64,000 nt of DNA, taken from contig JBMSEL010000001.1 of NCBI GenBank assembly GCA_049412325.1, positions 15,742 to 79,741 on the forward strand. Reading direction: 5' to 3'. This DNA comes from Poseidonia sp. (GTDB lineage Archaea > Thermoplasmatota > Poseidoniia > Poseidoniales > Poseidoniaceae). Each line of letters begins with the position of its first letter. Within the stretch, counting starts at the first letter, position 1. Both the position numbers and the translations under genes were made by a program. The notes below the pieces were generated by a model that was given only the letters and a program-made list of their open reading frames with translations, was not told the origin of the DNA and did not search any database. Shown here one piece after another: positions 1,537-62,300 of this stretch.

Positions 1537-3813
<2,277 letters not shown>

Positions 3814-38674: not shown

Positions 38675-41600
38675 TGATTCAATTCAACAACAGCCAGCGG
38701 CTTGGGTTGGATTTGGACCGACACATCGCCCTTGATGCGGGTGCGGGCACGGGAAAGACGACGGTGATGGCTGAGCGCTATGTTCAGCACCTGTTTGCCG
38801 ATGATCAACGAGCCACGCATGTCACGCCATTGGGGCCGCGAACGCCCCTGTCGGGCCACGGAGCCCTCCGTGCACCCAAACGTGAACGGACGGCACTGCA
38901 AGCATGGCCAGGATTGCTTCCCTCGGAAGTCGTGGCCATCACCTTCACTCGAAAGTCAGCCGCCGAACTCAAAGCCCGTATTCGACATCGCCTCGCTCAA
39001 GCTCGGGCACACGCGCCCTCAACTGAAGACCACGACGGCGTCTTTGACCCCAGGCTTCGAAACGACGGCGATGTGGAAATGCTCCTCTCTGGTTTGGATG
39101 AGGCCCCCATTTCCACCATTGACGCCTTCCTCAGCCAACTGGTCCAACCCTATGTTGACTTGGTGGCCCTCTATCCATCCAACCAGCAGGTGTCAGAGGA
39201 GCGAAAACCGCTGATGGTACAGGACACCCTCCATGCAGTTTGGCGCATTCGTTCCGTCGATGATGCCCGAGAAGCGGGTGTATTGAATCATCATCAAGCG
39301 TTCCTCGACGCTCGCAACCGCCTCGTAACCCGGCTGGGTGGACAGGACCAAGCGGAGATTGTCCTCGGCGGGCTGCTCGGTCGTTCCCTGTTTGTTGAAC
39401 AATCTCATCGGTCCATGATTCAGCGGGCTGAGGACATGGGCTTGGCTTGGAACGGACGAGGACCTGCCCCCGTGAGCGTGCTGCTCAACACCATTGCCGA
39501 GCCGGTGGTCGATCTCCTTCCTGATTTCATTGAGGAATTGCAACGGCGGTTGTGCGATTGGGTACAGACATTCTTGCCCTATCATGCCAATTGCATTGCA
39601 CCGGCCGAGGGCATCACGACGTTGACTCGATTCAACCATCTTGTACGGGTCACCTCTCAACCTCTCCCAACCGAGGCTGGTGAGCAACTCTCGTGGGTTT
39701 GGAAGGCCTTACTCGGGATTGCCACCGCCTCTGGCTTGGTCAAACCGTCATGCACGTTCTTTCCCAGAGATGCCCTTCCCAACGGAAACGGCTGGCCATC
39801 GGGTATGACCTCAAAAACAGGGTCTACCGGCCTCACCAAGGACGAGAAGAACACCCTTTACGAGGCCGGAAAGGCGCATCTTCCAGGCCTACGTACCCTC
39901 CTGAACTCCGCCAACGGGACGCTCATTCGCTTGCTGGCTCGATCCGCCTTCTTGCTCAACCCGATGGACGGCTTTGACGGCATGCCGCTGGACAGCCCCC
40001 TTCGATTGGACCCCTTGGTGGATCCGCTGCCCAGCGAAGCAGGTGATCGAGGCACCTATGTTTCCGCCGACCTCCAGGTCCAAGTGCTCAGCGACCTCCA
40101 CGTCATTCACGCTGCGTGCAATCAAATCCTCGCTCGAAGAAAATCGCTCGATAACATGCATGATTTCGATGACATGCAGCGTTTTGCTGCCGATTTGTTG
40201 CTCGCCCGGTGCCCCGACATCTGCCGGCATCGTTACCCGCCGGCTGTCATCGATGCGTTGGACGGGCTCGGCGATGAGCCGTGGACCGATGCCCACATCG
40301 CCCGCGCGCTGACATTGCTCAACGACCGCCCGAAATTGCTCGAGGACCTGCAACGTCGCGTGGCTATTCTGGGCGAACTCCGTCGCCAGTACCGTGCGTT
40401 CATCATCGATGAATATCAGGACACCAACCCATCCCACTACCGTTTGCTCGCCCGTTTGTGGGGTCGCCGCCGACGTCATCCGGATGACCCTGCGGGCCCA
40501 CTGGGTGCTTGGGACCCAACCGTGTGCATTGTCGGGGACATGAAACAGAGCATCTACCGTTTCCGTCAAGCCGAAGTGTCCGTGATGCGACGGACGGTGG
40601 AAGCCATTCGTCAGTTCAACATCGACGAGGAGGGCGAAACACGGCTCAATCATTTACGCGAGGCAGGTTGCGGGCGTGATCCGCGTCCTGTCGGCAGTGG
40701 AGGTGAAACCGGGTCGTTTTCCAACGAACACAGCGGTGAGGTATCAGCCCCGCATACCTTTGTTCGCTTTGACGAGGAAGACCAAGCGGGTCAACCTTCC
40801 ATCGTCGGCCACCGCTTGCTGCGCCGATCCGAAGGTCATGTTGATTTGACCTCCAACCATCGAACCCGCCACGATTTGATGGAGACCATGAACGACATGT
40901 TCGACGAGGTCTTTGACCCTCGCTACCACGACCTCCCAGGCGATTGGCACGCTGAAGCCCAACGGCTTCGGCCCGCTCGAGCCACCGAGCAGCCCGGTGT
41001 GTTGGAATGGCTCCTTCCAATCCCGGGGGCCATCACCGAAGTCCCCCTCGACTTGGACGTGGCCGTGAACACCTTCGCCGACCCGAATGCTTCGCAGGTT
41101 CATCTTGAACACGAATTGCTCGCTGACCGCCTCCATGCCCTGCTGAACGGCGCCTCCACAAGGGTGTGGGACAGTCATAACGCGTCGTGGACCGAGGTCA
41201 CCGAAACGGGCGCGCCGGTTCGGCCACAAGACATCATGATCCTGATCAATTCACGCAAGCATCTTCCAGATTTGGTCGACCGCCTTCGTGCTCGAAACAT
41301 TCCGGTCATGGCCGACCGACAGGGGCTGTTGTCCATGCAACCCGTCGTTCAGCCGTTGATGGCGATGTTGGCCTTGATGGCCCGACCGACCATGCGAAAA
41401 GCGGGTGTTGAACTCGCCAGGTCAGCCGTGGTCGGTCTATCGGAACGTCAAGTTCACGATGCCATGGTCTCGCTTGAGGACGGTGCCGAGGTTTTACCTC
41501 ATTTGATCGACCATGCACCATCCGAAGCGGTCCGGTCTCTCTTGACCCATCTACACGAACTCATGGGCTGGGGTGCCCTGTACGACGTGTTCGACGCTGT

Positions 41601-43608
41601 TCTCGACCATTCCGATTTGCTGGTGGCCTACCCTGATGACGCCCAACGGCAATTTGCCGAAGCATGGGTGGGCATCGTCCAATCCATCGGCAACGACACC
41701 GGCCATGATGCAGCTGCCATGTACCGTCGCATGGTCGAGGTTCGAGCGTTGGGCCGACAAGGCCCTCAAGCCATCACTCAACCTGATTCATCGGCCGTTC
41801 AGATCATGACCATTCACGGTTCCAAAGGATTGCAAGCGCCGGTGGTGGTGGTTTCGGGATTGTTTGCAGCAGGCAAGGCCGATGCCAGCATGTCAGTGCA
41901 GGACAACATTCTCGTCACCCCGCAGGTACTGGCCGGACGGATTCAACCTTGGCGGGCGAAGGACCGCCCAGAGGACGGTTTGTGGGCGTTTGCGGCCGAG
42001 ATGAACAAGGCTCAGGACAAGGCAGAACTCCGACGGAAATTCTATGTCGCGCTGACCAGGGTCAAAGACCGCCTTATCATCACGGGAAGCCCGGGCAACC
42101 GTTCGACCTTTGACGAAGAGAACGGAACGCTCTCGGTTCGGTTTGCTCCTGACCCTCGAACGATGGGTCGGATGTTCATCGAAGGACTGCGAAGGGCAAC
42201 ATGGTGCGCTGGTGGTGATGCCCCGTGGGTGTCTGAGGCTGAACTTGAGGCAACCGCGCTCCCACCTTTCTCCTCACATCAGCATCAAACAGCCCTCGAT
42301 CCGAGCGCCATGTTGAACGGTTCACAGCTCGGACAGAACGGGTTGTGCGGTTTGCGTTTGTATCATCATCCGTTGTGTTTTGACACCGTGGACACCCCTT
42401 CACCTCAACAGCGTGCTCGGGCGTTGGCCTCCCATCTTGAGACCATGGAGGCCACCGGTTTCACAACGGCCCCCCCGCTTCGCCTTCAAGAGAACATCAA
42501 GGGCGCTGCGCATCACCTCGATGCCACCTTTGCCTGCCCTCGCCGGTATTGGTTGGAACATGTACGGGGGTGGTCAACCGAACCCTTCCTTCTCCCGCAG
42601 GCTTCGACAGCACCACCTCCACAGCGAGCATGGCCCGAGCCCACCACGTTTGGTCTGATGATGCACCGGGTGTTGGAAATCGGTCTGCGAAATCCCCGCG
42701 CAAAGGATGAGAACACGCCGTTGTTGGATGCCTCATGGCTGCATGAGGCCGATGAGGACCTCGCTTCGGACGAGACCGTAGGGCGCGTCATGAACGAATT
42801 TGGATTTGGGCCTGAACAACACCCCTCCACCCCAGAAGCATCGTGGCGGGACCGGTTGATGCATCTGAGTTCGCTCATTGATCGTGGCCTGCTCGGTCAG
42901 TGGGTGCAGGGGTCAGCAGTGCAAGGCTGGACGGTTGAAGCCGTGAGGACTGAACTTCCGTTCTTCCACCGTGAGCGTCTCCACCGCGAGACTCCGTCGG
43001 GTGAACCCGAACAGGATGAGCAGCAAAGGCCCTCGGTGGTTGAGCATGTGAACATGGATTTCAGCGGTCGTGCCGATTTGGTGTTGGCGTTGGTCGACGA
43101 ACACGGGCAAGGGGCCCTGAAGGTGGTGGACCTCAAAACGCGAGGTTGTTTGGGGGCCTTCAACGCTGAAGAACCATCCAAAGGCCATCCGCTCCAAAGG
43201 GTGGGTCCCGAGGAAACCAACCCCGTTCCTCAAAGCGATGAGGAAGCATCAATCCTCCATGAACATCGCTTGCAACTCACCTTGTATTCGGTGGCCTTGG
43301 AAGCGATTGAAGCTCGAAAACCAGCGGGTGAGCGCCGACGCATCCTTCCTCCCGCGCTGCTTTTGGGTGCCAACGGCCGAATGGTGGAATTGTCCGAGGG
43401 CGCCTTTGACCAGGCCAAAGCGGATTTGATGGCGCATTTGGACTGGCGTGCATCGGTTCACCTCGAGGCACATCACGACGAACCCAAGCGCCTCTCGCCG
43501 GGGTCGATGGCGTGCCAGCAGTGTGCGTTTTATCGTGGAGATTTACGCCGCTGCGCCCCCGAAGGCGAACCGTTGGGATTTGTCAGTCGTCTTGGCGATG
43601 AGCCGTGA
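38674..43608 (+). CDS. addA: AddA/UvrD-family ATP-dependent helicase-nuclease (1644 aa)
   Basis: Walker A DAGAGTGKTTV; motif II FIIDEYQDTNPSHY; VGDMKQSIYRFRQA; SNHRT; MTIHGSKGLQAPVVVV; YVALTRVKDRLII. C-terminal RecB-type nuclease GRADLVLA..LKVVDLKT and QLTLYSVAL, plus Cys in FACPRRYW and CQQCAFYRGDLRRC. Confidence 0.9.
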   Translation: MIQFNNSQRLGLDLDRHIALDAGAGTGKTTVMAERYVQHLFADDQRATHVTPLGPRTPLSGHGALRAPKRERTALQAWPGLLPSEVVAITFTRKSAAELKARIRHRLAQARAHAPSTEDHDGVFDPRLRNDGDVEMLLSGLDEAPISTIDAFLSQLVQPYVDLVALYPSNQQVSEERKPLMVQDTLHAVWRIRSVDDAREAGVLNHHQAFLDARNRLVTRLGGQDQAEIVLGGLLGRSLFVEQSHRSMIQRAEDMGLAWNGRGPAPVSVLLNTIAEPVVDLLPDFIEELQRRLCDWVQTFLPYHANCIAPAEGITTLTRFNHLVRVTSQPLPTEAGEQLSWVWKALLGIATASGLVKPSCTFFPRDALPNGNGWPSGMTSKTGSTGLTKDEKNTLYEAGKAHLPGLRTLLNSANGTLIRLLARSAFLLNPMDGFDGMPLDSPLRLDPLVDPLPSEAGDRGTYVSADLQVQVLSDLHVIHAACNQILARRKSLDNMHDFDDMQRFAADLLLARCPDICRHRYPPAVIDALDGLGDEPWTDAHIARALTLLNDRPKLLEDLQRRVAILGELRRQYRAFIIDEYQDTNPSHYRLLARLWGRRRRHPDDPAGPLGAWDPTVCIVGDMKQSIYRFRQAEVSVMRRTVEAIRQFNIDEEGETRLNHLREAGCGRDPRPVGSGGETGSFSNEHSGEVSAPHTFVRFDEEDQAGQPSIVGHRLLRRSEGHVDLTSNHRTRHDLMETMNDMFDEVFDPRYHDLPGDWHAEAQRLRPARATEQPGVLEWLLPIPGAITEVPLDLDVAVNTFADPNASQVHLEHELLADRLHALLNGASTRVWDSHNASWTEVTETGAPVRPQDIMILINSRKHLPDLVDRLRARNIPVMADRQGLLSMQPVVQPLMAMLALMARPTMRKAGVELARSAVVGLSERQVHDAMVSLEDGAEVLPHLIDHAPSEAVRSLLTHLHELMGWGALYDVFDAVLDHSDLLVAYPDDAQRQFAEAWVGIVQSIGNDTGHDAAAMYRRMVEVRALGRQGPQAITQPDSSAVQIMTIHGSKGLQAPVVVVSGLFAAGKADASMSVQDNILVTPQVLAGRIQPWRAKDRPEDGLWAFAAEMNKAQDKAELRRKFYVALTRVKDRLIITGSPGNRSTFDEENGTLSVRFAPDPRTMGRMFIEGLRRATWCAGGDAPWVSEAELEATALPPFSSHQHQTALDPSAMLNGSQLGQNGLCGLRLYHHPLCFDTVDTPSPQQRARALASHLETMEATGFTTAPPLRLQENIKGAAHHLDATFACPRRYWLEHVRGWSTEPFLLPQASTAPPPQRAWPEPTTFGLMMHRVLEIGLRNPRAKDENTPLLDASWLHEADEDLASDETVGRVMNEFGFGPEQHPSTPEASWRDRLMHLSSLIDRGLLGQWVQGSAVQGWTVEAVRTELPFFHRERLHRETPSGEPEQDEQQRPSVVEHVNMDFSGRADLVLALVDEHGQGALKVVDLKTRGCLGAFNAEEPSKGHPLQRVGPEETNPVPQSDEEASILHEHRLQLTLYSVALEAIEARKPAGERRRILPPALLLGANGRMVELSEGAFDQAKADLMAHLDWRASVHLEAHHDEPKRLSPGSMACQQCAFYRGDLRRCAPEGEPLGFVSRLGDEP

Positions 43609-45246: not shown

Positions 45247-45324
45247 CCAAAAAACCGGCCAAGGCGTGCGAAATCGGTGCGCTTTCGAGCGTCGGCTTGA
45301 TAGGGAGGAGTGAACTCGGTGAAG

Positions 45325-46110
45325 ATGGAGGCTTGGCCTCCGGGTGAAGACATGACGGAAGGAACCATCACACCTGAGGTCCAAATCAAGCAACTCGAGG
45401 AAGCCTTGGCAACCGAAACCGACCGCTTGCAGAAACTCTTCGCCGCTTACGAAACGCAGGAGAAAGAACTCGTTGACGCCAAGGCCGAAATCGAGGTGCT
45501 CGAGAAGGAAATCATCGACCGTGAAATCGAGAAAGAATCGCTCGAATCCATCATCGCCGAGAAGGACGTACGGGTTCGCGAACTCGAGATGAAGGCCACG
45601 AAGAACTCCAAGCGTGTTGAGCACCTTGAGCCTGAACTCGAGAAGATGGAAGAGAAGTACTCCCGAGAAAAGGACCGGTTGGGCAAGGTCTTCGGCATTG
45701 CTGAAGAACTGGACAACGACCTCCGATTGGCCGTCACCGAAATGAAGGCCCGTGACGACTGGTATGTCGCCCACATGCAGATCTTTGAAGACTTGAACAA
45801 GGCCATCAAGGAGCGCTACGAGATGATCGAGCGCGCCGTTGAATCCGAGCGAAAATCACAGCACATGTCCCGTGCATTCACCGAGCGTGTGGAGGAAATG
45901 GTTCAGGCACGTTCCGAAGAGATGGCCGAAGAAGAAGCCGTCGTCGCCGAGGCTGAAGAAGCCACAGCGGCCGTTGAGGTCGTTGAAGAGGCGCCTGCTG
46001 AAGTCGAGGCCGAAGAGCCCGCTCAGGACGAGGCGGCAGCAGAAACTCCAGCCGAAGAAGCGGCACCTGCTTCGTGGGGCGACAGCCAAGACCCCTGGGC
46101 CTCGGAGTAG
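45325..46110 (+). CDS. coiled-coil protein with an acidic Ala/Glu-rich tail
   Basis: Heptad-like EKELVDAKAEIEVLEKEIIDREIEKESLESIIAEKDVRVRELE. The tail is EEAVVAEAEEATAAVEVVEEAPAEVEAEEPAQDE. Start ambiguous (GTG 45310/45319 or ATG 45325) behind SD GGGAGGAG. Confidence 0.55.
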   Translation: MEAWPPGEDMTEGTITPEVQIKQLEEALATETDRLQKLFAAYETQEKELVDAKAEIEVLEKEIIDREIEKESLESIIAEKDVRVRELEMKATKNSKRVEHLEPELEKMEEKYSREKDRLGKVFGIAEELDNDLRLAVTEMKARDDWYVAHMQIFEDLNKAIKERYEMIERAVESERKSQHMSRAFTERVEEMVQARSEEMAEEEAVVAEAEEATAAVEVVEEAPAEVEAEEPAQDEAAAETPAEEAAPASWGDSQDPWASE

Positions 46111-48076: not shown

Positions 48077-49252
48077 GTGGACAGCATGACCGGACCCAAT
48101 CCTCTGCCGTTGCTTGGAAACGGGCAGAAAGGGCTCCGCATTCACGACTTGGTCAAGGCGCCTGCGAACACACCCTGGGCTAAAGCCAAACAGCAATCGT
48201 GGGATGCCAGTGAACCAGCAACGGTGTACACCACGCCCGAGGTCTTGGCTGACGGGACGCCGTGCAGTGCGGTCACCGTCATTCTGCGAACGAAGGGTTG
48301 CCACTGGTGGTGGTCGTCCGGCTGCACGTTTTGTGGTTATTTCAACGACACTCGAGATGATGTGACCAACGAGGACCTTCATGCTCAATGGGCGGCGGCG
48401 AAGACGAAATTCGATGATTTCAAAGACCAAGCCATGGTGAAAGTCTACACCTCTGGCAGCCTGCTCGAAGACAGGGAAATCCCCGTTGAATTTCAAGAAA
48501 CGGTCCTGCGCGATTGCGCTGAGATGGGCAAGGAACTCATCGTCGAGAGCCGCTGCGAGCAACTGACCGAAGAGAAGCTCGCCTGGGCGACCTCCATCAA
48601 TCCGGACTTTACCGTGGCGATTGGACTGGAGGCTTACGATGACGAAGTCCTCCGCTTCCACGTCAACAAAGGCTTCACCACCAAATCATGGGATAGGGCC
48701 GTTGAGAACCTGAAGAAATTCAATCTCCGCATCAAGACCTACCTGATGTTCAAGCCCCCGTTCATGAACGAAGCCGATGCACTGGACCACTGTGTCAAGT
48801 GGATTGAAGCGGTTGCCGAACAATCCGACGAGATTTCAGTCAACCCAATGAACATTCAACGCGGCACCGTCATTGATCGTCTTCACAGGCACAACGAGTA
48901 CCGTCCACCATGGCTGTGGTCGCTGGTCGACATGATTCGACGAGCGCACCCGCTGATTCATCCCGAGGGCGGCATCAACGGCGATGCGGACCAAGTCGCT
49001 CGTCTCATCGTTCACCCAACGGCGGGAGGGAAAATTCGTGGTTCGCACAACTGCGGCCAATGCGACCCTGAGGTCGTTGCGGCGATTGAACGCTACGCGG
49101 TCTCAGGGAGCCTGTTGGAATTCGAGGGGTTGTCCTGCGATTGTGAAGCGGTTTGGCGGTCTGAGATTCAATTGGAGCGGCAACTCCCTGTCCCCCTAGG
49201 TCTCTCCAAACCTCGCCGTGGCTCACCAGTTCATCGTCTACGCTCCCCCTAA
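48077..49252 (+). CDS. radical SAM protein of the TIGR01210 type (possibly the archaeosine-pathway enzyme RaSEA)
   Basis: Cys cluster ILRTKGCHWWWSSGCTFCGY; VESRCE; IGLEAYDDEVLRFHVNKGF; KTYLMFKPPFMNE; NPMNIQRGT..YRPPWLWS. ATG 48086 is an alternative start. Confidence 0.75.
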   Translation: MDSMTGPNPLPLLGNGQKGLRIHDLVKAPANTPWAKAKQQSWDASEPATVYTTPEVLADGTPCSAVTVILRTKGCHWWWSSGCTFCGYFNDTRDDVTNEDLHAQWAAAKTKFDDFKDQAMVKVYTSGSLLEDREIPVEFQETVLRDCAEMGKELIVESRCEQLTEEKLAWATSINPDFTVAIGLEAYDDEVLRFHVNKGFTTKSWDRAVENLKKFNLRIKTYLMFKPPFMNEADALDHCVKWIEAVAEQSDEISVNPMNIQRGTVIDRLHRHNEYRPPWLWSLVDMIRRAHPLIHPEGGINGDADQVARLIVHPTAGGKIRGSHNCGQCDPEVVAAIERYAVSGSLLEFEGLSCDCEAVWRSEIQLERQLPVPLGLSKPRRGSPVHRLRSP

Positions 49253-49357: not shown

Positions 49358-49630
49358 ATGACGAACTCCAGAGCCCTCCCCGACACGACGGTCGGGATGG
49401 GAGAACCCGCAGCCAGTCGCATTGTCCTAACCCTGTTTTTCGTTGGGATTCTCGGCCTCTATTCCTTGTTTTCAAACGTCTTCGGCTGGGACAACCTCCC
49501 GTTGCTTGGCGAAATCGTGCCCTTGGTTCAAAACTTGGGTGGAAGCGGCATCTGGTACTACCTCATCGGCTTCTTGATTGGAATCGGCGCCATTGTGGCA
49601 ACCTTGGTGGGTGAGGTTCTCGCCGAGTGA
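49358..49630 (+). CDS. small membrane protein (90 aa, 2-3 TM helices)
   Basis: SD GAGGTGA 5 nt upstream of ATG 49358. Hydrophobic IVLTLFFVGILGLYSLF and IWYYLIGFLIGIGAIVATLVG. Confidence 0.55.
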   Translation: MTNSRALPDTTVGMGEPAASRIVLTLFFVGILGLYSLFSNVFGWDNLPLLGEIVPLVQNLGGSGIWYYLIGFLIGIGAIVATLVGEVLAE

Positions 49631-49644
49631 AGGAGGTGTGATGC

Positions 49645-51630
49645 ATGGAACTCATTTTCATCGCTGGCGGCGCCCTTCTTGCGCTTCTCTTCCTGCTTGC
49701 CCAATCCCTCTCCAAAGGTGTTGGGTCCGTGGGCGGCGCCTTCAAGCAAATCGGCTTGTTCGTGCTCCAGAAGAACCCACCCGGACTCGTCGACATCTTT
49801 GACGACAAGGACGGCAGTGGCTCCCGAACGTGGATGAACTTCGGGATGCTCTGGTTTGTGTTCGCCACGCTCCTTGGCTTCCTGTTGGGCTGGCACACCT
49901 ACGACCCAACGGCGCTCGATTCCCTGGCCAGCGTGGGTTGGGATTACGACGATGGTTCTTCGCTCAAGGATGCAACGCTGAACTTCCTCTCCATCGCCCT
50001 GCTCTACGGGCTGGTGGGCAGCGGTATGGTCGCTGCAGCCCGCAACGGCAACGGCCGTCTTGCCAGTGAAGCCAACGCTTCCATGGTAGCGCTGTTGTTG
50101 TCGGTCGTGTTGCTCGCCACCTACATCTTGCCGTTCATCTTCGGCTTCCTTGACATCGACACCTCGGAAAACCCCATCCGAACCGTGCTCTACAGTTTGG
50201 AGACGCTCGCTGTTGGTCTGTTGCTGATTCCTGTGTTCATCAACATCCTCATCACGGCCGCCAACCGAGGTGAGCAGGAACTTCAGACCAGCGTATGGTT
50301 CCTGATCATGGGTATCGCAGCCTACATCCTCTCCATGCTCTACATGTTCTTTGGTGAATTGGCCGATGCAACCCAGATGGTGTGGCTGGCCGAGCGTGTG
50401 GCCTACGGCTGGGTGCCCTTGGCTCTCATGTTCTCGGTGGGCTACCACGTGATTCCCATGACCGCCAAGCAACCAATCTGGTCCGGCTCCCTTCGTGGTG
50501 CCAGCATGTTCCTGCTGTTCATCACCATCCCACCGTTCTTCATGACCGATGCGTCGGCCAGCAACTTTGTCACCAACCTCGGCGCCATTCTGTTGACGTT
50601 GGGTGTGTTGCCCATCTTTGCCGCTTCGGTCAACTTGCTGATGACCGCCAGTTCCGGGCTCAGCGCCGTTGTCAAGCAACCCGGCGCCATCGCCGCTACC
50701 ATGGCATTCATCGCCCTTCCCTTCTTTGCCATCGGTGGCTATTTCACCGCCATGGACACGTTCGTTGGTACGGGCGACCTCGGCACCATGGGCGACATCG
50801 TCAACATGAGCATGATGTTCACCGTGGGCGGTCTTCTCGTTCTTGCTGGTGTCTTCACGAACTACCCGAATGCGATCGGGAAACCACTTGCGACGCCCTC
50901 CACGGCTACGTTGGCCACCTGGCTGGTCTTCGTCGGCGGTGTGGCTTCGACCCTCACCTACCTGACGGGCGAATTCACTGCCAATGCTGTAGCCGCTTCC
51001 GAAATCGAAGACGTCGGGGCCATCAACGGTGGTTTCTACCTGACCGGTGCTGCCTTGTTCTACTTGGCTTCCATCGGTGCTATCCTGTCCACCTTGGTCG
51101 TCATCCGCACGGGCATTGCTTCAACGGGTCGTTCCATTGAAGTCAACGACGCCTCTGATGTGGCCACGTACACGCTAACGTCCGGCTCATCCACCACCAT
51201 TCGAGACCTGATTGGACGTGGTGTGGGCGTCGACACGACCCTCGTGGTCAGTGAAACCGAAATCAACGAAGGCGGCTCAACCGTCATCGCCGTCGATTCT
51301 GCGCTTCACAACGATGAGGTCAAGGAATTCCCCACCACCGCATCCACCGTGATGGTCGAGTTCGTTCAATACCTCACCAACACCAACCAGTCGGTGTTTG
51401 AGCTCTTCCGAGGAATGGACCTGGACGATTCCGGTAAGATCGACAGCCGTGAATTCTTGGCTGCGCTCGAAGCCTCGGACGTTGAGGCGTTGTCTTCTCT
51501 GGAGGCTGCTGAACTGGTCGAAAGCATGGATTTGGACGGCGACGGGGAACTCAACCTCCCCGAACTTGACATTGCAATCGCTCAAATCAAGCGAGACCAC
51601 GACATCGTGGCGGCTCAAGAAGAGGAGTGA
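49645..51630 (+). CDS. CcoN/FixN-like (heme-copper oxidase subunit I fold) polytopic membrane protein lacking the His ligands, with a C-terminal EF-hand pair
   Basis: GYHVIPMTAKQPIWSGSL..IPPFF and LPIFAASVNLLMTASSG align with the remembered FixN segments [18 protein letters not shown]..GPHH and [18 protein letters not shown]. Only 2 His occur in about 500 membrane residues. EF loops DLDDSGKIDSRE and DLDGDGELNLPE. Confidence 0.65.
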   Translation: MELIFIAGGALLALLFLLAQSLSKGVGSVGGAFKQIGLFVLQKNPPGLVDIFDDKDGSGSRTWMNFGMLWFVFATLLGFLLGWHTYDPTALDSLASVGWDYDDGSSLKDATLNFLSIALLYGLVGSGMVAAARNGNGRLASEANASMVALLLSVVLLATYILPFIFGFLDIDTSENPIRTVLYSLETLAVGLLLIPVFINILITAANRGEQELQTSVWFLIMGIAAYILSMLYMFFGELADATQMVWLAERVAYGWVPLALMFSVGYHVIPMTAKQPIWSGSLRGASMFLLFITIPPFFMTDASASNFVTNLGAILLTLGVLPIFAASVNLLMTASSGLSAVVKQPGAIAATMAFIALPFFAIGGYFTAMDTFVGTGDLGTMGDIVNMSMMFTVGGLLVLAGVFTNYPNAIGKPLATPSTATLATWLVFVGGVASTLTYLTGEFTANAVAASEIEDVGAINGGFYLTGAALFYLASIGAILSTLVVIRTGIASTGRSIEVNDASDVATYTLTSGSSTTIRDLIGRGVGVDTTLVVSETEINEGGSTVIAVDSALHNDEVKEFPTTASTVMVEFVQYLTNTNQSVFELFRGMDLDDSGKIDSREFLAALEASDVEALSSLEAAELVESMDLDGDGELNLPELDIAIAQIKRDHDIVAAQEEE

Positions 51631-51655
51631 ACCCGTTCAGAGGGGCGTGCTCAGG

Positions 51656-52936
51656 GTGCGCATCGGCCTCGTTGGGAAACCGAATGTCGGAAAATCGACG
51701 TTCTTCAGTGCGGCAACGCTGGCTCAAGTCGACATTGCCAATTACCCGTTCTGTACGATTGAACCCAACGTCGGCGTGGCGTTTGTTGAGGCACGTTTAG
51801 CGTGCCCGTGCAAAGACCTCCGAGAGAAACTGGAGGGGGAAGGGCGGCTCGCTCCCGCCACGGAGGACGACCCGCGCCACGGCAGTTTGTGTGAACCAAG
51901 AACCGGTTCCTGCGTGGGCCACCGTCGAAGCGTTCCCGTCGCGCTGGTGGATGTGGCTGGGCTGGTCCCGGGTGCGAGCGAAGGCCGCGGCCGTGGAAAT
52001 GCCTTCTTGGCGGATTTGGCCAATTGTGACGTGCTCATCCAAGTCGTCGATGCTGCCGGTTCCACGGACATTGAAGGGCAGTTCAACGGGGCTTCGAGCA
52101 CCACCGAAGCGGCGGTTGAAGCCGTTCGTGCAGAAATCGAGTTCCTTGAACACGAATTGGATGCGTGGATCGGTGGCTTGCTTGAGGACGGTTGGAACCG
52201 AGGTGTTCGCCGGGTTCAAGCCGAAGGCGAGAAAGGCCTAACATCGTTCATTCATGAGCGCCTTAGCGGTCTTGGTGCCACCTCCGTGAACGTGGCCCAA
52301 GCGATGTTTGAGTTCAACCAGTGCCACACTTCCGATGCCCAACCTTGGGATTGGGAGGCCGCCTCACTCCACCTGTTGGGCCAGTGCATGCGCAAGCAAT
52401 TGTTTCCCATCGTCTACGCCGCTAACAAGATGGACATTGCACCACCGGGCGTCCTTGAAGCGTTTTCTGACCGGACGATGGTGGCCTGCATGGCCGACAT
52501 GGAACTGGCGCTTCGAAGGGCTGCATCTTCAGGCCTCATCGACTACCACAGCGGGCAGTCGTCGTTCACCGTTCATCCCGGAGCTTCCCTCAACGAGGCG
52601 CAACAAAAGGCCCTGTCTCACATGAACCAGCGCCTCGAGCAGGCAGGGGGAACCGGACTCTCTCGCCTTATGGACGAGGTGCTGTTCGACCAACTCGAGC
52701 ACATCGTCGTCTATCCCGTGCAAGATGAATCTCACTGGGTTGACGGCGACGGTCGAGTTCTACCCGATGCATTTGTGGTTCCGGCTGGGTTGCATGCGAA
52801 AGCGCTGGCCGGCCGCGTTCACACGGACCTAGAAGCCGGGTTCATTCGTGGTGTTGACGGACGCACGCGAAGGGTGGTTGGCGCCGACCACGAATTGGGC
52901 GACGGCGACGTGCTGAAGATTCACGCCAAGTCGTGA
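51656..52936 (+). CDS. Obg-like GTPase/ATPase of the YchF-related Ygr210 type with a C-terminal TGS domain
   Basis: G1 GLVGKPNVGKSTFF; ANYPFCTIEPNVG; G3 DVAGLVPGA; Cys-containing insert CPCKDL..CEPRTGSC; TGS-like end GDGDVLKIHAKS. No in-frame ATG, so the start is GTG 51656 or GTG 51647. Confidence 0.85.
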   Translation: MRIGLVGKPNVGKSTFFSAATLAQVDIANYPFCTIEPNVGVAFVEARLACPCKDLREKLEGEGRLAPATEDDPRHGSLCEPRTGSCVGHRRSVPVALVDVAGLVPGASEGRGRGNAFLADLANCDVLIQVVDAAGSTDIEGQFNGASSTTEAAVEAVRAEIEFLEHELDAWIGGLLEDGWNRGVRRVQAEGEKGLTSFIHERLSGLGATSVNVAQAMFEFNQCHTSDAQPWDWEAASLHLLGQCMRKQLFPIVYAANKMDIAPPGVLEAFSDRTMVACMADMELALRRAASSGLIDYHSGQSSFTVHPGASLNEAQQKALSHMNQRLEQAGGTGLSRLMDEVLFDQLEHIVVYPVQDESHWVDGDGRVLPDAFVVPAGLHAKALAGRVHTDLEAGFIRGVDGRTRRVVGADHELGDGDVLKIHAKS

Positions 52937-52938
52937 GT

Positions 52939-53325
52939 TCAGTGGCCCTTGGGGCGGTCGTAGGCCGGGGTTAGACGGGCTATATCACCCGAATATTGAC
53001 CGCCTCGATAGATGAAGAGGACCGGTGCTGCGAGGGTCAGCAAAACCAGCAAAATGAGGAAAAACAAGCCCCACGGTTCAACACCGGATAGGGTGGATCC
53101 CCACAACACCCAGAGGAAGGGGAGGTAGAGGAAAATGCTGTACCGGCGTGCCACGGCGGAGAACCGAGCACTTGCGGTGTTCTTCTCAAAGAGCACAGGA
53201 ACTTCTTCCTTGCTGACCAGCCCGTGGTCAACCCCGCAACGCACGCAGACTTGCGAATTTGGTCCGTTTCCGTGAATAAAGAACTCACGAGGATAGGTGC
53301 TCCCGCAGTGGCGACAGGTTGGCAT
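52939..53325 (-). CDS. zinc-ribbon membrane protein
   Basis: MPTCRHCGS..VCVRCGV (CxxC..CxxC) followed by two hydrophobic helices (IFLYLPFLWVLWG, LFFLILLVLLTLAAPVLFIY). Confidence 0.6.
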   Translation of the reverse strand: MPTCRHCGSTYPREFFIHGNGPNSQVCVRCGVDHGLVSKEEVPVLFEKNTASARFSAVARRYSIFLYLPFLWVLWGSTLSGVEPWGLFFLILLVLLTLAAPVLFIYRGGQYSGDIARLTPAYDRPKGH

Positions 53326-56344: not shown

Positions 56345-59300
56345 TCACAGTAAGTCGTCGAGGAAGGAGGTGTCAATTTCGGGCATGCGGGGCGCAGCCG
56401 CAGGCTCGTCGAGCAGCCCGTCCAGCAGGGAGGGGTCAACCTGCGGCTGAAGCACCGGTTGGCTTGGTTGGTAGGCGGGCCGTCCGTAATCTTGGCTTTG
56501 GATGCGGTTCGCTGCAGCGTAGATGTCGTCAGCCTGTTGGGGCGAAATGCCCGGAGGTGGTGCGGGCGTGGCGGTGGGCGGTGCAGGTGGCGCAGCCGAT
56601 GCGGGTGTGTCCCAGCTCGTGTCTTGGATGCCCCAAGTGGCTTCTTGAAGTTCCCAGTTCTTGGAACGCCGGGTTGAATTTCCACGAGCCCGAACGACGA
56701 GCACCAAGAGCATGACAACGATGATGAACATGCCTGCTGCAATGAGGTTCGGTGTGGTGAGCAACGATTCGAGGGTCAATTGTCCGTCGTCCTTGACACC
56801 ATCCGTCGTTGCACCAGTTCCGTCAAGAGCGCTCAACTTGACCGATTCAACCGTGGACTTTGCGACCGTTTCATCGTAGGGCACGACACCGAGATAGTAG
56901 GCTGTGGCGTTGTTGAGGCCCTCGTATTCGTCGGTCGTGATCTGGAAGGAATTCGCCGAAACCGTCTGTCCAACCATGGTGGCTTCGTCGGTTGACGTGA
57001 ACATTTCTTCGCTGATGTAGATGTGGTAGCCTCGAACATTGGCGTCGACGGAATGCTCCCATTCAACGAAGATGCTTGTTTGCTCAAACCATTCTGCGCT
57101 CACCTTGGCGATATCGGGCAGGTACACGCCCGGGTCGGTGATGCCCTCGTCGGTGGCGCTGGCCGAGACCATGGTGAGCATGTCGGTGTGGGCGTTGCCC
57201 GCCGAGTCCACCACGACCACAGCCACCCAGACATTTTGACCGGTGATGACGGGTAGGTCGCCAGCGATGATGTCGATGACCAGTGGTAGACTTGGCGTCC
57301 TATCGAGCGTTGCAATCGGGTTGAGGGCCATTTGGGTGCCTTGCTGTCCAACTGAACCTTCGAAGTTGTAGGTCTCTGCGTAGACGAGGTATTCCCGGAC
57401 ATCATCTGCTTCGGAGAGGTCGAAGGAGAGCAGCAAAGCGCTGCCATCGTCGTTGGGACGGTCGGTCAGCGTCAGGTCGCTTAACCGGTCAGGGGCCGTG
57501 TTATCGTTGACGTTGTCCACGGGCGTGACGCTGACTTGTGTCAAGTCGGTCAGGTGGACGTTTCCTCGCAAGTCGTGAACGGTGACCACCACGAAGTACT
57601 CCACATCCGCTTGGATCAAACCTGGTACACCATCGGCGAGCGTTCCACCTTCTGGAACGACCAGGGCCGTTGAGAGGGTGAGTTGAATGGGGTTGGTTCG
57701 CTCGTCGATCCACTGCTTGTTGAACGAGAAGCATCCGCAGGCTTCAGGGTTGCTTCCAAAAGCCGCGTAGGCAGTGGAGAGGTCTTCAACGGGAGCATTT
57801 GAAATCCACACCGTGTACGATGCGAAATCTTCCACGGTCGATGGCTCCCACACCACATCGATGGCACTGCCGTCGTCGTCGGGGTGGTCGAAGGCCATCA
57901 GTGAGGTGATGCGAGGGGGCGTGCCGCCCTGGCCCACGATGTTTTGCAACGGTGCAGCGGCAACAAGCAACACGTCGTTGGTGTTGCCGTTCAGCCAGAC
58001 GTCGTACGCGACGACGCCCACGGTGTAGATCTGTCCGTCGATGAGCGGAACACCGTCCAGGGATGACACGATGGTCGTGTTTTCATCGCACGGGTTGATG
58101 ACTGCGGCTTGGGAGAACCCTTCCAGAACATCCACGCCGATTGCAGCATCGGTCGCTGTATGGTCGCCCTGCTTCATGTAGACCGTGTAAAATGCACAAT
58201 CCTCAGCCTCGCTGACATTCCAACTCACGACCAATCGGCCACCTTCGTCGTTGGGTACATCGCTCACCGTTGTGCCCGTGATGGGGTCTGGGGCGTCGTT
58301 GTCGTTGAGTTCACCCGTGGGGACCACAGGGCCCACCACGGTGACGTTGGACAGGTTTTCCTGACCTGCTTGGTCAACGCACGTGAATCCGATCCACACC
58401 GGGACGCCGGGGGTTTGCTGGATCACCGACTGGTTCCCCTCGTTGGGGACGTAGGAGGTGAACGGCGTTCGTCCCAATGCATCCACCATCGGCGAGGTCG
58501 AGACGTAGACGTTGGTCGACGCCAAATCCAGCGCCGTGCATCGTGCCCATTCGAGTTCGATATCACCGTCATCACCGCTGCTACCGAGCGCTCCAGCACT
58601 GGCCCAAAGGGGTGCACCTGGAATCTCATCGCTTGGAGATGCCGGACCAAACGGAGCAGAGACCTTGCCCCAGCGCCCATCGGTGTACTCAACCACGGCC
58701 ACGGCATAGTAATCGGTACCGTCCATGAGCGGTGCACCGTTGGCGGTCTCAATGTCTGCACTCAATCGGCTGTGGAGGGAGACGGCTTTGTCAGGGGTCT
58801 GTCCGAGGAGTTGGAGTTCGGTTGGCGCCGTGGTCCAAGGGCCTTCGTTGAGGAAGATGAGGTAGCGTGCGAAATCTTCGTCGTGAACGAGGGACCACGA
58901 TGCGGTGAGGACGCCACCGCCGTCGTCAGGACGGTCAATCAAGCCCTGAACTGCCACCGGCGTGTCGCTTCGAACATAATCGTAGGTCAACCTGACCTCA
59001 AGCGAGCCGTTGCTGGGCGAGAAGAGTCGCAGCGCCACGTGCCGAGTGTTGTCGTAGAGTTGGCCGGTGTCGACCGCATCTTGCAGGTTGAGCGCAAGGG
59101 CGGGGTCCTCACTGAGGTTCAGCGTGACATCGTACTGCAGGGCGACCGATTTAGCCCACACCGCAGCCCCCGTCGACGGAGACGTCATGACAACGGGGAC
59201 GTTTTGGAAGAGCAAACCGTGGATCCCAGGTGTTCCTTGCGTGGCGTCCAACGAAAAGGGCGCCGTGGGGTCAACCAGGTCGATTTGCATCCCCGGATGG

Positions 59301-62300
59301 GTCATGTCACTGATGTTCATGCCGCCACCGTTGCCCATGGCCCGAACCGTGAGCGGGAGGGCGCGTCGCATGGAGGTGGATTCAATCGAGGTGAACTGGC
59401 CGTTTCGCTCCCAGCCGAGCAATCCTTCTTCGGTGATCGCCCAAATGTGATTCGCACCCAGTGTACCGGTGACAAGGCCAACCGCCCCAAGGGATGTTGT
59501 GTATGCGTGAGCAGGTGTGCGTGCTTCACTGAGCAACAGGTTGTTCCTCGAACCGACCGACAGGAGTTCATCCCCGTCGCTGACCATGTGAACGATGGGG
59601 TACTGAAGTTGAAGCGAGGATGTGCCGTCTTCAAAGTCCCCGCTCGAGGCGTTCCAATGGGTCAATGGACCCACGTCGGTGGCCATGTGGAGGCCCCACC
59701 AGTCAGCGGTCAAGGCCGTCACTGTGTTGGACGGGAGCTGGTCAAAGCGATGTGTGGAGATGACTTGCTGGGTGGACGGGTTGACGAGGCTCACGCCGGG
59801 TCGGTCAGCGCCGCGTCCGTCGTGGCTGACGATGAGCGTCGAGGTGCCCACGGAGGAGGTTGTCAGGGCCAATCCCCACGTCGATTGTCCCATCAGGCCG
59901 TTGCTGGTGGTCATCGTTGTGCCGCTTTGCGCCGATGGATCCCACACGAAGAGTCCGGCGGGCGTGGCCATGTAGACGAGGTTGCCAAAGGCGAGCACGT
60001 CTTCGACCACGTCGGTTGGTAGGCCATTGAACGTCGTGATGGAATCCATCCAATCGTTGGTGGAATAGTTCCAACGGCCGATGCCGCCATCGGTGGCGAT
60101 GTAAAGGATGTCAGTGGTCTCGGCGAAGCCGTTCACGATGTTGGAGGGCAAGCCTGCGATGAGGCGACCGTTGCCGAATTGAGAGGTCAAGGGGTTGAAC
60201 ATTTGAACGCCCGGTGGACTTCCACCATCACCAGCGAGCCCGATGACGAGTTGATTGTTGTAGGTGTGCATCGTATCGAACTTGCCGTGGAGCGAGCCGC
60301 CCACCGCTGAAATCGTACGAGTGGTGGTGTCGAGTTTGAGCATACCACCGGGGTTGGTGGCGATGAAGAGGTCTGTGCCATGCAAGTGGAAATCGCTGGC
60401 CACCGTGTTGCCGGGGAGCGTCCAACCGTATTCCCACTCAACCGTTCCGTTGGGTGAGAACGTCCCTTGGAGCAAGCCGGTACCGGTGCCGCCAAAGTTT
60501 CCTGTGGTGGCGGATGAACCGGTTGAAACCCAGAGATGGGTGGCGTTAGCCACCATCGTGGGTACTTGGCCGCTGACGAGCCCGGGGAGGTCCACGACCG
60601 TTTGTCGTCCAGAAGACGAGAGCGTGGCGACTTCGCTGTAGCCGGATGAGCCACCTGCACGGCCGATGAGCCATTCGGACGAACCATTGAGCCATTGCAA
60701 GGAGGTAACGGGTGATCCTGCACCCTGGATTTGTGCCTGCAGAGCGGTAGCGCCGCTGGCCACCAAGGTCGAATATCCGCCGGCGATGAGGTTCGGACCT
60801 GAGTTTCCAACAGCGTGTCCGACGATGAGTTGTGTGCCCGAATGGGAGAGCGCATCGTACCACACCCGGTCGCTCGGGAGGTTGTGGCTTGCGGTGGTCA
60901 AACTGGAGATGAAGCCCGAGGTGGCGTAGCTGTAGCGGCTGATGGGCTGGTTGTCGTTGTAATAGCCGATGTAGAGGGTGTCTTGATTGTCGCAGGTTAC
61001 GGATGCGGGGGCGGTCCCGTCGAGTTGACTGCGGTCAAAGCCTGAGTTGACCGTGGCGTTCTGCAAGTCGATGCGAGCAATACCGCCGTTGTTGTTGTAC
61101 ATGGCGATGTTGAGCATGCCGCCACACATCTCCATAGAAATAGGATAGCCGTCGGGAATGTTGTTGTTGGAATCAGCGGGGTAGGATGTCCACGCACCGG
61201 CACCGTTTCGATGTGAGATGATGCCTTCTCTGAACTGGCCGAAGTTGGTGAAATCAGCACCTCCGACAACCAGGTGGGTGCCATCGGTCCACAACTCGTA
61301 GAAGATGTCCCCGGCGTTGCTTGGTAGGCCGTTCCCGGCATACCATGTGGTGTTCCATGTGTTCGTGTTTTCGTTGTAGCGCGCAACACCGCCTTCGGTG
61401 GCGAACAAGGTCTCTCCGTTGTGCTCAACGATGCCCCGGATGGGGAGTTCAAAGGTCGTCCATTCGTTCACGAGGTTTTGGTTGCTGTCGTAAAGTTCCA
61501 ATTTCAACTCGCCCCAAGAGACCCACGTGTTGCCGTTGGAAGATTCGTAGGTCGTGACGCGATCAATGGATCCGGTTGGTAGAATGTTTTCTTCCCAAGT
61601 TGAAGTGGTGGTGTTCCATCGGGCGATGCCCCCTGAACCATCGCTGTTCCACCATTGACCCGAAACGACGCTGACCATCAGCGTGTCACCGGACATTTCC
61701 ATGCTGACGATGTCGCCACCGTTTTCTCCTACTCGTGCGCCGATGTCCAGATTGCTGGGGTCGGTCAAATTGGCGACATCAAGTCGACTGACTTCATCGC
61801 TTGAGGTGCCAGCGTGGTAGTAGAGGATGTTGTTGTGAATGAGCATGTCGCGAGGCGCACCGTTGGCGTTGTAGAGGCTGCTCGAGCGTTCGATGTCGTA
61901 GGCTTCGCCGCCGGTGGTGACATTGATGAGTTGGAACCCGTCATCGCCACCGACCCAAAGGAGGTTTGGTCGGATGTCTGCCACGAGCCCGGTCACATCG
62001 TCGTTGCCACCGTCGAGCACGCCATTGTCCTCGGTGAAGGGGACAAGCCACTGGTTTGAGGTGATGTTGTAGCGGAGTACGCCAAGTCCCTCGGTGCCGA
62101 TGTAAGCGATGTCGCCCATGATCTCGACCACGGCGTTGCCCGTTTGGGTGCCTTGGCCCCAATTCTCGTCGTGTTGGAAGTTGGATTTCGTGATGAGGCC
62201 CACGCCTGAATTGGTCCCGCCGTAGACGTAGGAGGCGTCGACGCCCACGCTGTAGGTAGCCCAGTTGGGCATCCCGTCGTACACGTTTTGGCAGTCATCG

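Follow-up and report, generated by a model that had tools for sequence, protein, structure and literature searches.

A Predicted Cofactor-Less Homologue of the Oxidase Subunit CcoN with an EF-Hand Pair in Poseidonia (Marine Group II) Archaea

The CcoN-Like Gene and Its Product

A 64,000-nucleotide stretch of DNA from Poseidonia sp. (GenBank assembly GCA_049412325.1, contig JBMSEL010000001.1, positions 15,742 to 79,741 of the forward strand), analyzed here in full and referred to as the window, contains a gene for a 661-amino-acid protein related to CcoN (FixN), subunit I of the cbb3-type heme-copper oxidases (HCO). The membrane domain of this CcoN-like protein is predicted to have the fold of the oxidase subunit without its cofactors, and the protein ends in a pair of EF-hands. 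Nucleotide positions are those of the window. An earlier note, made from the sequence alone, had drawn attention to the open reading frame (ORF); it is present at 49645..51630 on the forward strand, and the protein strings quoted in that note lie where they had been placed, namely GYHVIPMTAKQPIWSGSL at residues 266–283, LPIFAASVNLLMT at 322–334, DLDDSGKIDSRE at 592–603 and DLDGDGELNLPE at 629–640. The main features of the gene are as follows.

49645..51630, forward: CcoN-like gene with EF-hand pair, 661 aa, complete (open reading frame and conserved relatives)
49631-49638, forward: AGGAGGTG, Shine–Dalgarno sequence or ribosome-binding site, 6 nt 5′ of the ATG at 49645 (sequence)
49816..51117, forward: 12-helix fold of heme-copper oxidase subunit I, residues 58–491, closest to cbb3 CcoN (hmmsearch against PDB, HHalign, Foldseek)
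51346..51597, forward: EF-hand pair, residues 568–651, predicted cytoplasmic (Pfam, phmmer, AlphaFold2, Foldseek, K+R counts)

The protein contains about 13 hydrophobic helices within its first 491 residues. It has histidines only at positions 84, 268, 555 and 652, and no cysteine. The ribosome-binding site AGGAGGTG directly follows the stop codon (49628-49630) of a small upstream ORF and precedes the start codon of the CcoN-like gene, and this placement supports both the choice of start codon and the co-translation of the two genes. A 373-aa antisense ORF (49558-50679, reverse strand), part of which overlaps the CcoN-like gene, was rejected as a spurious high-GC artefact. In this Poseidonia archaeon, a member of Marine Group II (MGII), the ORF at 49645..51630 is a real gene and is conserved in relatives.

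Homology of the Membrane Domain to CcoN

Relatives were sought with an exhaustive phmmer search of residues 1–520 against 1.84 billion representative proteins, which gave 92 matches only. Two sets of family members were used: an alignment of 20 full-length diverse members, 22–51% identical to the window protein, and 36 non-redundant members; each count of conservation, columns or K+R is given over one of these sets.

The relationship to CcoN is visible only with a family profile, since single-sequence searches found the EF-hands alone. With the whole window protein, Pfam, NCBIfam and PDB (phmmer) gave EF-hand matches and no COX1 match, and the membrane domain alone (residues 1–520) had no match in a single-sequence phmmer search of PDB. 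Likewise, a hidden Markov model (HMM) of five CcoN sequences retrieved neither this ORF nor any other ORF of the window. The profile check proposed in the earlier note gave a positive result with the family profile; Pfam COX1 (PF00115) did not match the window protein alone, and it did match three of the 20 diverse members (best E 3.2e-11).

A reference profile of CcoN was built from five annotated ccoN genes on plasmids of Rhizobium, Azospirillum, Sphingobium, Ralstonia and Ensifer; the CcoN fragment given in the earlier note is up to 98% identical to real ccoN genes. In HHalign, the family membrane domain aligned to this profile with a probability of 98.9%, E 2.3e-17 and a score of 138 over ~435 columns, which include all 12 core helices. 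The reversed CcoN profile scored 16, the maximum among 20 column-shuffled CcoN profiles was 21.6, and an unrelated family of the major facilitator superfamily (MFS) with 12 transmembrane (TM) helices scored 22 against the CcoN-like family and 23 against CcoN. Four of the five subgroups tested aligned to CcoN independently, with E from 4e-7 to 1e-10, and the tail-less subgroup of Marine Group IIb (MGIIb) aligned weakly (E 0.0018). When the family profile was run with hmmsearch against 177,635 distinct PDB sequences, only six matches were obtained, five of which were cbb3 CcoN chains (E 2e-17 to 1e-14) and the sixth NorB (E 0.14).

Predicted structures gave the same assignment. The AlphaFold2 (AF2) model of the window protein (pLDDT 80.7, pTM 0.72) was matched by Foldseek to CcoN at ranks 1–7, with E from 2e-8 to 4e-7 and TM-scores of 0.72–0.77, followed by NorB of cNOR and by ba3 and aa3 oxidases. 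The model of a tail-less MGIIb member (pLDDT 82.3, pTM 0.84) produced the same ranking, with CcoN again at ranks 1–7 (E 2e-12 to 7e-11, TM-score 0.77–0.81). Because sequence profiles, profile–profile comparison and predicted structures agree, homology to heme-copper oxidase subunit I of the C family is regarded as established, and the membrane domain is shown to be a true homologue of CcoN in particular. The likeness to CcoN/FixN proposed in the earlier note was thus borne out by profile search, HHalign and Foldseek on two models. The register of its hand alignment was also reproduced by HHalign against the five CcoN sequences (YHVIP opposite YYFVP, PIWS opposite PVYS, PIFAASVNLLMT paired), as was the pairing of residues 105–145 with RLRPVHT...RLF.

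Loss of the Cofactor Ligands

The ligand columns were read in the HHalign register and are given with R. etli CcoN numbering; for helix X the HMMER alignment was compared. The residues of CcoN and their counterparts are listed below.

H117, helix II, axial ligand of heme b: A110 in the window protein; T, G, A or V in the family, His in 0/20
H266, helix VI, Tyr-linked CuB ligand: R251; among the 36 members R in 11, K in 11, H in 5 and Q in 3
H316, helix VII, CuB ligand: F298; F, L or V in the family, His in 0/20
H317, helix VII, CuB ligand: F299; G or F in the family, His in 0/20
H404 and H406, helix X, where one His is a ligand of the low-spin heme and one of the high-spin heme: a 10-column gap (HHalign) or hydrophobic columns (HMMER), with a conserved His in neither
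Active-site cross-linked Tyr (helix VII in the C family): gap or F, I or L; lost
E179, E182 and R114 (Ca/periplasmic-cavity residues): variable or gapped columns; lost
50383..50397, forward: W247-L-A-E-R251, the helix VI segment opposite WWYGH of CcoN, with R251 at the column of the CuB-ligand His
50527..50541, forward: IPPFF, residues 295–299, in place of GPHHL of CcoN with its two CuB histidines (alignment and DSSP of the AF2 model)

The window protein thus keeps none of the six His ligands, as the earlier note had read from its hand alignment, and no subgroup keeps more than one. At the H266 column, His occurs in two of the 20 diverse members; R, K or H is found in 27 of the 36 members, and the residue is absent in 6 of the 36. 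The residues E179, E182 and R114 are the equivalents of E122, E125 and R57 of P. stutzeri, which are Ca2+/periplasmic-cavity residues (PMC3431322). Conserved histidines at the ligand positions were looked for by alignment and not found. Independently of any alignment to CcoN, no family column contains His in more than 10 of the 20 members, and no Cys or Met column of the 20-member alignment is conserved at any ligand site. The histidine count confirmed H84 and H268 as the only two of the membrane domain. H268 pairs with the second Tyr of the CcoN motif YYF[IV]P, a non-ligand column occupied by Y or H in the family.

Two subgroups have a single relic His. In the SAP-only group represented by P0142, it stands at the helix II ligand column (13 of 13 members), and in the tail-less MGIIb group (P0172/P0313) at the helix VI ligand column (9 of 11 members). 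This is the pattern expected of stepwise decay from a genuine oxidase and argues for such descent.

The electron-donor subunits of cbb3 oxidases were not encountered either. The earlier note had reported no adjacent CxxCH protein (CcoO/CcoP), and the 64-kb window contains no ORF with CxxCH except one spurious antisense ORF, nor a second oxidase-like ORF. No cytochrome c family was present among the called genes and recorded Pfam matches of the loci of five divergent relatives. The tblastn comparison of 80 loci described below tested the conservation of the window neighbours and included no cytochrome search.

With the six histidines, the Tyr and the Ca-site Glu residues lost, heme b, heme b3 and CuB are not expected to bind at the ancestral sites, nor O2 or NO to be reduced there. 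At the level of sequence and predicted structure, the CcoN-like protein is shown to be a CcoN descendant with the 12-helix fold and a predicted lack of cofactors, a putative "pseudo-oxidase".

Retained Residues and Membrane Topology

Outside the ligand columns, the family shares much with CcoN. Seventeen non-ligand residues invariant in CcoN are kept in at least 14 of the 20 members: W70, R133, L139, T204, W218, W247, P271, P277, S280, L283, P323, N330, T334, G375, P408, W426 and G431. A further set of residues is family-specific and at least 90% conserved among the 36 members (G25, F39, K43, D50, G57, E142, N200, F472, Y473, R520, G526, D530 and T531). The segments concerned are listed here together with the regions that lie outside the CcoN core.

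50440..50493, forward: GYHVIPMTAKQPIWSGSL, end of helix VI and following cytoplasmic loop, homologous to CcoN; P271, P277, S280 and L283 are common with CcoN invariants, and S280 is invariant
50608..50646, forward: LPIFAASVNLLMT, helix VIII; P323, N330 and T334 correspond to the CcoN-invariant P, N and T at equal spacing
49651..49713, forward: extra N-terminal TM helix, TM0, residues 3–23, outside the CcoN core (AF2 models of the window and MGIIb proteins)
49714..49815, forward: family-specific conserved cytoplasmic segment, residues 24–57, with an amphipathic helix at 29–42; G25, F39, K43, D50 and G57 at least 90% conserved
51184..51237, forward: family-specific juxtamembrane motif G514-x2-TTIRxLLxxGVGxDT, past the CcoN homology (alignments)

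In helix VIII, N330 is invariant and P323 and T334 are at least 90% conserved. Judged by the AF2 helix boundaries, most of the conserved polar residues are located in the cytoplasmic half of the membrane or in the cytoplasmic loops. Compared with what we take to be the residues of the K_C channel, the window protein retains S280, N330 and T334 and has T368 in place of the FYGMS Tyr and L259 in place of the Thr of helix VI.

The HHalign match to CcoN begins at residue ~51, so that TM0 and most of the segment after it precede it. The mean K+R count of the 36 members is 13.0 on the predicted cytoplasmic loops vs. 0.6 on the opposite loops, in agreement with the orientation of CcoN. The loop of residues 24–57 is placed inside the cell because of its mean of 4.1 K+R, and TM0 puts the N-terminus outside. 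Helix VII is short, with 13 residues (281–293) in the window model, and the MGIIb model also has a short TM7. After this helix, where CcoN has GPHHLHY, the window model shows a confidently non-helical stretch with the semi-conserved T294 and P297; the same stretch has low confidence in the MGIIb model. In the juxtamembrane motif, R520, G526, D530 and T531 are at least 90% conserved in the 36 members and invariant among the 20 diverse members, and G514 is 80–90% conserved. The low AF2 confidence of the TTIR region (~57) suggests a docking motif. From this topology we infer that the TTIR motif and the C-terminal tails are cytoplasmic.

C-Terminal Tails

The two EF-hand loops of the window protein lie within residues 568–651.

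51418..51453, forward: EF loop 1, DLDDSGKIDSRE, residues 592–603 (D1, D3, S5, D9, E12), kept in 12 of the 20 diverse members
51529..51564, forward: EF loop 2, DLDGDGELNLPE, residues 629–640 (D1, D3, D5, N9, E12), in orthologues D-[LI]-[DN]-x-D-G-x-[IL]-x-L-P-E

Pfam EF-hand_7 matches the window protein with E 1e-6 and 29.4 bits, 0.6 bit under the gathering score of 30, and one Ca-binding effector match in NCBIfam covers the same residues. In a phmmer search of PDB, calmodulin and centrin were matched at E ~5e-6 over residues 578–641. The AF2 model of the tail consists of helix–loop–helix twice (pLDDT 85–90), with calmodulin-type Foldseek matches at a target TM-score (TMt) of 0.8. Among the diverse relatives, Pfam finds the EF pair in 12 of 20, with a best E of 3e-11, and where the loops are present the canonical ligand positions are kept in orthologues down to ~24% identity of the membrane domain. 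This conservation argues that the pair is no chance match. The two canonical loops are thus shown to form a genuine EF-hand pair, and Ca2+ binding is predicted from their sequences. The earlier note had described the loops as canonical, which holds in orthologues too; as a trait of the whole family the pair does not stand, being lineage-variable and no defining feature of the CcoN-like family.

Four tail architectures were found: EF plus SAP, EF only (the clade of the window protein), SAP only, and no tail. The SAP domain (PF02037), a helix–extended–helix motif, occurs in 11 of the 20 diverse relatives (best E 1.2e-9), with the C-terminal consensus L-x-K-M-K-K-x-E-L-V-x-L-A-x-x-x-G-x-x-x-x-G-T-K-x-D-L-I-x-R-I; relatives that end in it include P0122-P0129, P0136, P0142, P0145, P0158 and P0160. 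Neither Pfam searches nor the 20-member alignment show it in the window protein or the rest of its Poseidonia clade, which has lost the domain.

Small Partner Gene and Conserved Gene Block

The CcoN-like gene is accompanied by three other genes.

48077..49252, forward: RaSEA, archaeosine radical-SAM enzyme, upstream (TIGR01210, E 2.5e-86)
49358..49630, forward: 90-aa protein with two predicted TM helices, candidate partner subunit, directly upstream of the CcoN-like gene
51647..52936, forward: YchF-related GTPase, downstream, starting ~16 nt past the stop codon (NF007171, E 1.3e-123)

The small protein was found upstream by tblastn in 80 of 80 Poseidoniaceae loci. Its length is 87–93 aa across loci, and it is better conserved than the CcoN-like protein (67–98% vs. 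49–96%), with the consensus LPDxTVGxGEP...FGWDxxPxLGExVPL..LGGSGIWYYLIG. It has no match in Pfam, NCBIfam or PDB. The gap between the small ORF and the CcoN-like gene is 8–15 nt in 12 loci of Marine Group IIa (MGIIa) and four divergent or MGIIb loci, the outer flanks of which differ. The two-TM protein is a probable subunit of the CcoN-like protein, and the spacing supports translational coupling of the two genes.

RaSEA, the small two-TM protein, the CcoN-like gene and the YchF-related GTPase form a four-gene block kept in both MGIIa and MGIIb. The GTPase was found downstream in all loci inspected and starts 16–56 nt after the CcoN-like gene. The window neighbours were detected by tblastn in most of the 80 MGIIa loci, with the same gene order in the 12 that were inspected; in divergent and MGIIb loci the outer flanks differ and the four-gene block persists. 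A transfer of function from the neighbours was considered and rejected, because both flanking genes (RaSEA and the YchF-like GTPase) have housekeeping roles and their conserved synteny points to no mechanism.

Distribution of the Family

About 270 full-length relatives were collected. Close relatives (93–100% identity) are abundant in marine metagenomes, where they are labelled "EF-hand domain-containing protein" or "hypothetical protein" and assigned to Poseidonia or Poseidoniales. One degenerate pattern, built from eight closer members, matched 220 GTDB species genomes. The best 80 of these 220 are all metagenome-assembled genomes (MAGs) of Poseidoniales, with the exception of one contig binned as Verrucomicrobiales, and they include the original MG-II assembly CM001443.1. 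The tail-less members bear the label Thalassarchaeaceae, which corresponds to MGIIb. A profile search with divergent members returned the P0142 subgroup only, which reflects a limit of the word prefilter. The ORF is intact across the 220 species at 22–96% identity, with its invariant residues, and the CcoN-like gene is thus shown to be fixed across Poseidoniales and under purifying selection across this archaeal order.

Near-identical copies of the gene occur on contigs L030 (NZEQ01000068.1) and P0281, which are labelled as MAGs of Verrucomicrobiales or Marinimicrobia. These are most likely mis-binned Poseidoniales contigs.

Comparison with Known Systems

The closest known system is CcoN/FixN, cbb3 subunit I (PDB 3MK7, 8SMR, 6XKW), with which the family shares the 12-TM fold (TM-score 0.72–0.81), profile homology, orientation and the 17 invariant residues. 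The window protein differs from it in lacking the ligands of both hemes (b and b3) and of CuB, the cross-linked Tyr and the Glu residues of the Ca site, and the CcoN-like proteins also differ in the absence of CcoO, CcoP and CcoQ partners and in the extra N-terminal TM helix and cytoplasmic segment, the broken helix VII, the TTIR motif and the EF and/or SAP tails. Their host range is different as well: they occur in an archaeal order, Poseidoniales, and the C family has few representatives among Archaea (PMC11214002). NorB of cNOR and the newer nitric oxide reductase (NOR) families belong to the same C-family/NOR branch and were the second-best structural matches.

Complete conservation of the active-site His residues is described for every HCO family other than gNOR, where one of them is replaced (Murali et al. 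2024, PMC11214002); gNOR was described there as the first HCO family member with such a replacement. In gNOR, His is changed to Asp once and a redox function is still proposed, whereas the window protein has lost all six ligands and each subgroup of the CcoN-like family five or more.

Among archaea, family fam02696 of Halobacteria is comparable in being unannotated, with a kinship to HCO subunit I that was seen only by HMM–HMM comparison (Meheust et al. 2022, PMC9258230). By its description, it differs from the present family in being restricted to Halobacteria and in often lying close to HCO/NOR genes (PMC9258230). The same study mentions Poseidoniales-specific modules with Ca-binding domains; the CcoN-like family is not described in it, and its supplements contain no searchable entry for the family. 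A literature search joining EF-hand, heme-copper and archaea turned up this paper alone, and no published description of the CcoN-like family was found. MGII archaea are reported to respire with low-affinity cytochrome c oxidases and, in some subclades, also with cytochrome bd, and no cbb3 oxidase was reported for them (Tully 2019, PMC6336850). One entry of the Joint Genome Institute (JGI) names a member of the family "cbb3-type cytochrome oxidase subunit 1", and precomputed COX1 matches are attached to some of the members. The CcoN-like family is an undescribed cofactor-free variant within the well-studied HCO superfamily.

The arrangement of the window protein has parallels outside the superfamily. 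In NOX5/DUOX and in the mitochondrial carriers SCaMC and Aralar, a calmodulin-like EF module is located on the cytoplasmic side of a polytopic membrane domain, which is switched by Ca2+. The membrane folds of these proteins are unrelated to that of CcoN, and their regulation is experimentally established, whereas for the CcoN-like protein it is proposed by analogy of arrangement.

Proposed Function and Alternative Explanations

A non-redox function is inferred for the CcoN-like protein. The channel, transporter or sensor suggested in the earlier note, which would reuse the pathways of the oxidase, is compatible with the conserved features. As the mechanism we prefer, tentatively, an ion- or proton-conducting or sensing module that uses a remnant cytoplasmic pathway and is modulated by Ca2+ through the EF pair. 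The protein would form a membrane complex with the 90-aa two-TM protein, in the orientation of CcoN and with its C-terminus inside the cell. The conserved machinery would lie in the cytoplasmic half and would comprise the N-terminal segment, E142, N200 and T204, the PIWS loop, N330 and T334 of helix VIII and the TTIR...DT motif. This half may lead to the remodelled former active site, with the basic R251 at the CuB-His column and helix VII broken. The module would conduct or sense a small ion, the first candidate being the proton, and the route would be a remnant of the cytoplasmic proton-uptake path of the oxidase. In the lineage of the window protein, Ca2+ on the cytoplasmic EF-hand pair may switch the module, possibly by clamping the amphipathic helix of residues 29–42.

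Several observations weigh against this mechanism. The residue at the former CuB column varies between R, K, H and Q and is absent in 6 of 36 members, and such variation would suit a structural charge no less than a proton carrier. Few conserved polar residues are found in the outer half of the membrane, and a continuous pathway is not evident. The correspondence of S280, N330 and T334 to S236, N289 and T293 of P. stutzeri, which presumably lie in or border the K_C proton channel, is an unconfirmed lead. The tail modules differ between lineages, and the SAP domain, which binds nucleic acids, would be an odd regulator for a channel. For helix X, the HMMER and HHalign alignments differ, and neither places a conserved His there.

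As the main alternative, the ligand-less fold and its small partner could instead be a pure scaffold or tether, i.e., a membrane anchor for cytoplasmic effector modules through which no ion passes; the EF pair could then provide Ca2+-dependent partner binding and the SAP domain could bind DNA or RNA, for example in tethering nucleic acid or translation factors. The modular tails (SAP in 11 and EF in 12 of 20) agree with this, and so do the mostly hydrophobic or small residues in the former heme-ligand columns, the clustering of conservation on the cytoplasmic face, including two family-specific motifs of low AF2 confidence that resemble docking elements, and the constant flanks in the inspected loci, with RaSEA (tRNA modification) on one side and a YchF-related GTPase of the ribosome-associated type ~16–56 nt downstream on the other. 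However, MGIIb members with neither EF nor SAP keep the membrane domain, the invariant intramembrane residues N330, S280, T204 and Y473 and the partner gene, so the core must have a function of its own, and a mere anchor is not expected to hold polar intramembrane residues invariant at ~22% overall identity. We consider a pure scaffold possible and somewhat doubtful. Pseudoenzymes often regulate active paralogues, which counts in favour of an assembly factor or decoy, in which the protein would mimic apo-subunit I and interact with partners resembling subunit II/III, with chaperones of heme or copper, or with lipids, in the biogenesis or regulation of the A-type cytochrome c oxidase of MGII. 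The surface fold of subunit I is retained and MGII archaea have cytochrome c oxidases elsewhere in the genome (PMC6336850), but the protein is derived from the C family while the oxidases reported for MGII are low-affinity ones (A-type), metal-binding residues are not conserved in it, and no adjacent cox, cco or cytochrome c genes were seen in ~90 loci, the 80-locus tblastn among them not being aimed at cytochromes. Such a role appears improbable.

That the protein is still a redox enzyme, an O2/NO reductase or heme protein with unconventional ligands, is very unlikely, although the fold is retained, gNOR sets a precedent for the replacement of one active-site His (PMC11214002), two subgroups have a single relic His and Y473 is invariant within TM12. 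No conserved His, Cys or Met column exists at or near any ligand position, the membrane domain of the window protein has two non-conserved histidines and no Cys, the Glu residues of the Ca/propionate site and the Tyr cofactor are lost, and neither an electron-donor subunit nor CxxCH was found. The absence of a COX1 match to the window protein alone and the failure of the CcoN HMM to find the ORF could point to an artefact, either a compositional similarity among TM proteins or a decaying pseudogene. The probability of this is negligible: the reading is already refuted by the controls (a score of 138 against 16–23 for the reversed, shuffled and MFS profiles), by the specificity for CcoN across the PDB, by the agreement of two structure searches, and by the ORFs intact in 220 species at 22–96% identity with invariant residues.

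With the conducting or sensing module as the preferred mechanism, a broader evolutionary scenario can be outlined with some doubt: a respiratory oxidase subunit, probably of bacterial origin, may have been stripped of its hemes and copper in the ancestor of Poseidoniales and turned, with a small partner, into a device that conducts or transduces ions or protons. Such a device would reuse the cytoplasmic proton path of the oxidase and would be gated by intracellular Ca2+ through the fused EF-hand pair.

Other Features of the Window

Several other genes of the window were recorded. Two adjoining genes on the forward strand (34937-38674, 1245 aa, and 38674-43608, 1644 aa) encode PD-(D/E)XK nuclease and UvrD helicase domains and resemble an AddB/AddA pair of the bacterial type, here in an archaeon. 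An NAD-dependent DNA ligase of the bacterial type (LigA) with a BRCT domain is encoded at 1585-3813 (forward) and is, in an archaeon, another sign of bacterial gene acquisition in the lineage. A 2548-aa ORF at 56345-63991 (reverse), which has a TM anchor at its C-terminus and a tail rich in Pro and Ala, is probably a giant surface protein, and a 1451-aa FG-GAP repeat protein is encoded at 13168-17523 (forward). Two proteins without a family match have a synteny conserved across Poseidoniaceae, namely a 266-aa acidic coiled-coil protein (45310-46110, forward) and a 128-aa protein with a Zn-ribbon and two TM helices (52939-53325, reverse).

Biological Implications

In the classification of heme-copper oxidases, the His ligands are treated as a defining and essentially invariant signature (PMC11214002). 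The presence of an order-wide family with the fold and many of the scaffold or channel residues, and with no cofactor sites, implies that the scaffold can be repurposed. For bioenergetics, a natural cofactor-free subunit I could reveal which parts of the proton path stand alone, and the evolutionary scenario outlined above, if true, would be an experiment of nature in which the architecture of the HCO proton path is uncoupled from redox chemistry. In genome annotation, cbb3 or COX1 labels on members of the family could wrongly suggest that Marine Group II, which ranks among the most abundant archaea of surface seawater, has a high-affinity microaerobic respiration. Finally, a cytoplasmic EF-hand pair on a polytopic membrane protein is a candidate for Ca2+ signalling, which is poorly documented in archaea.

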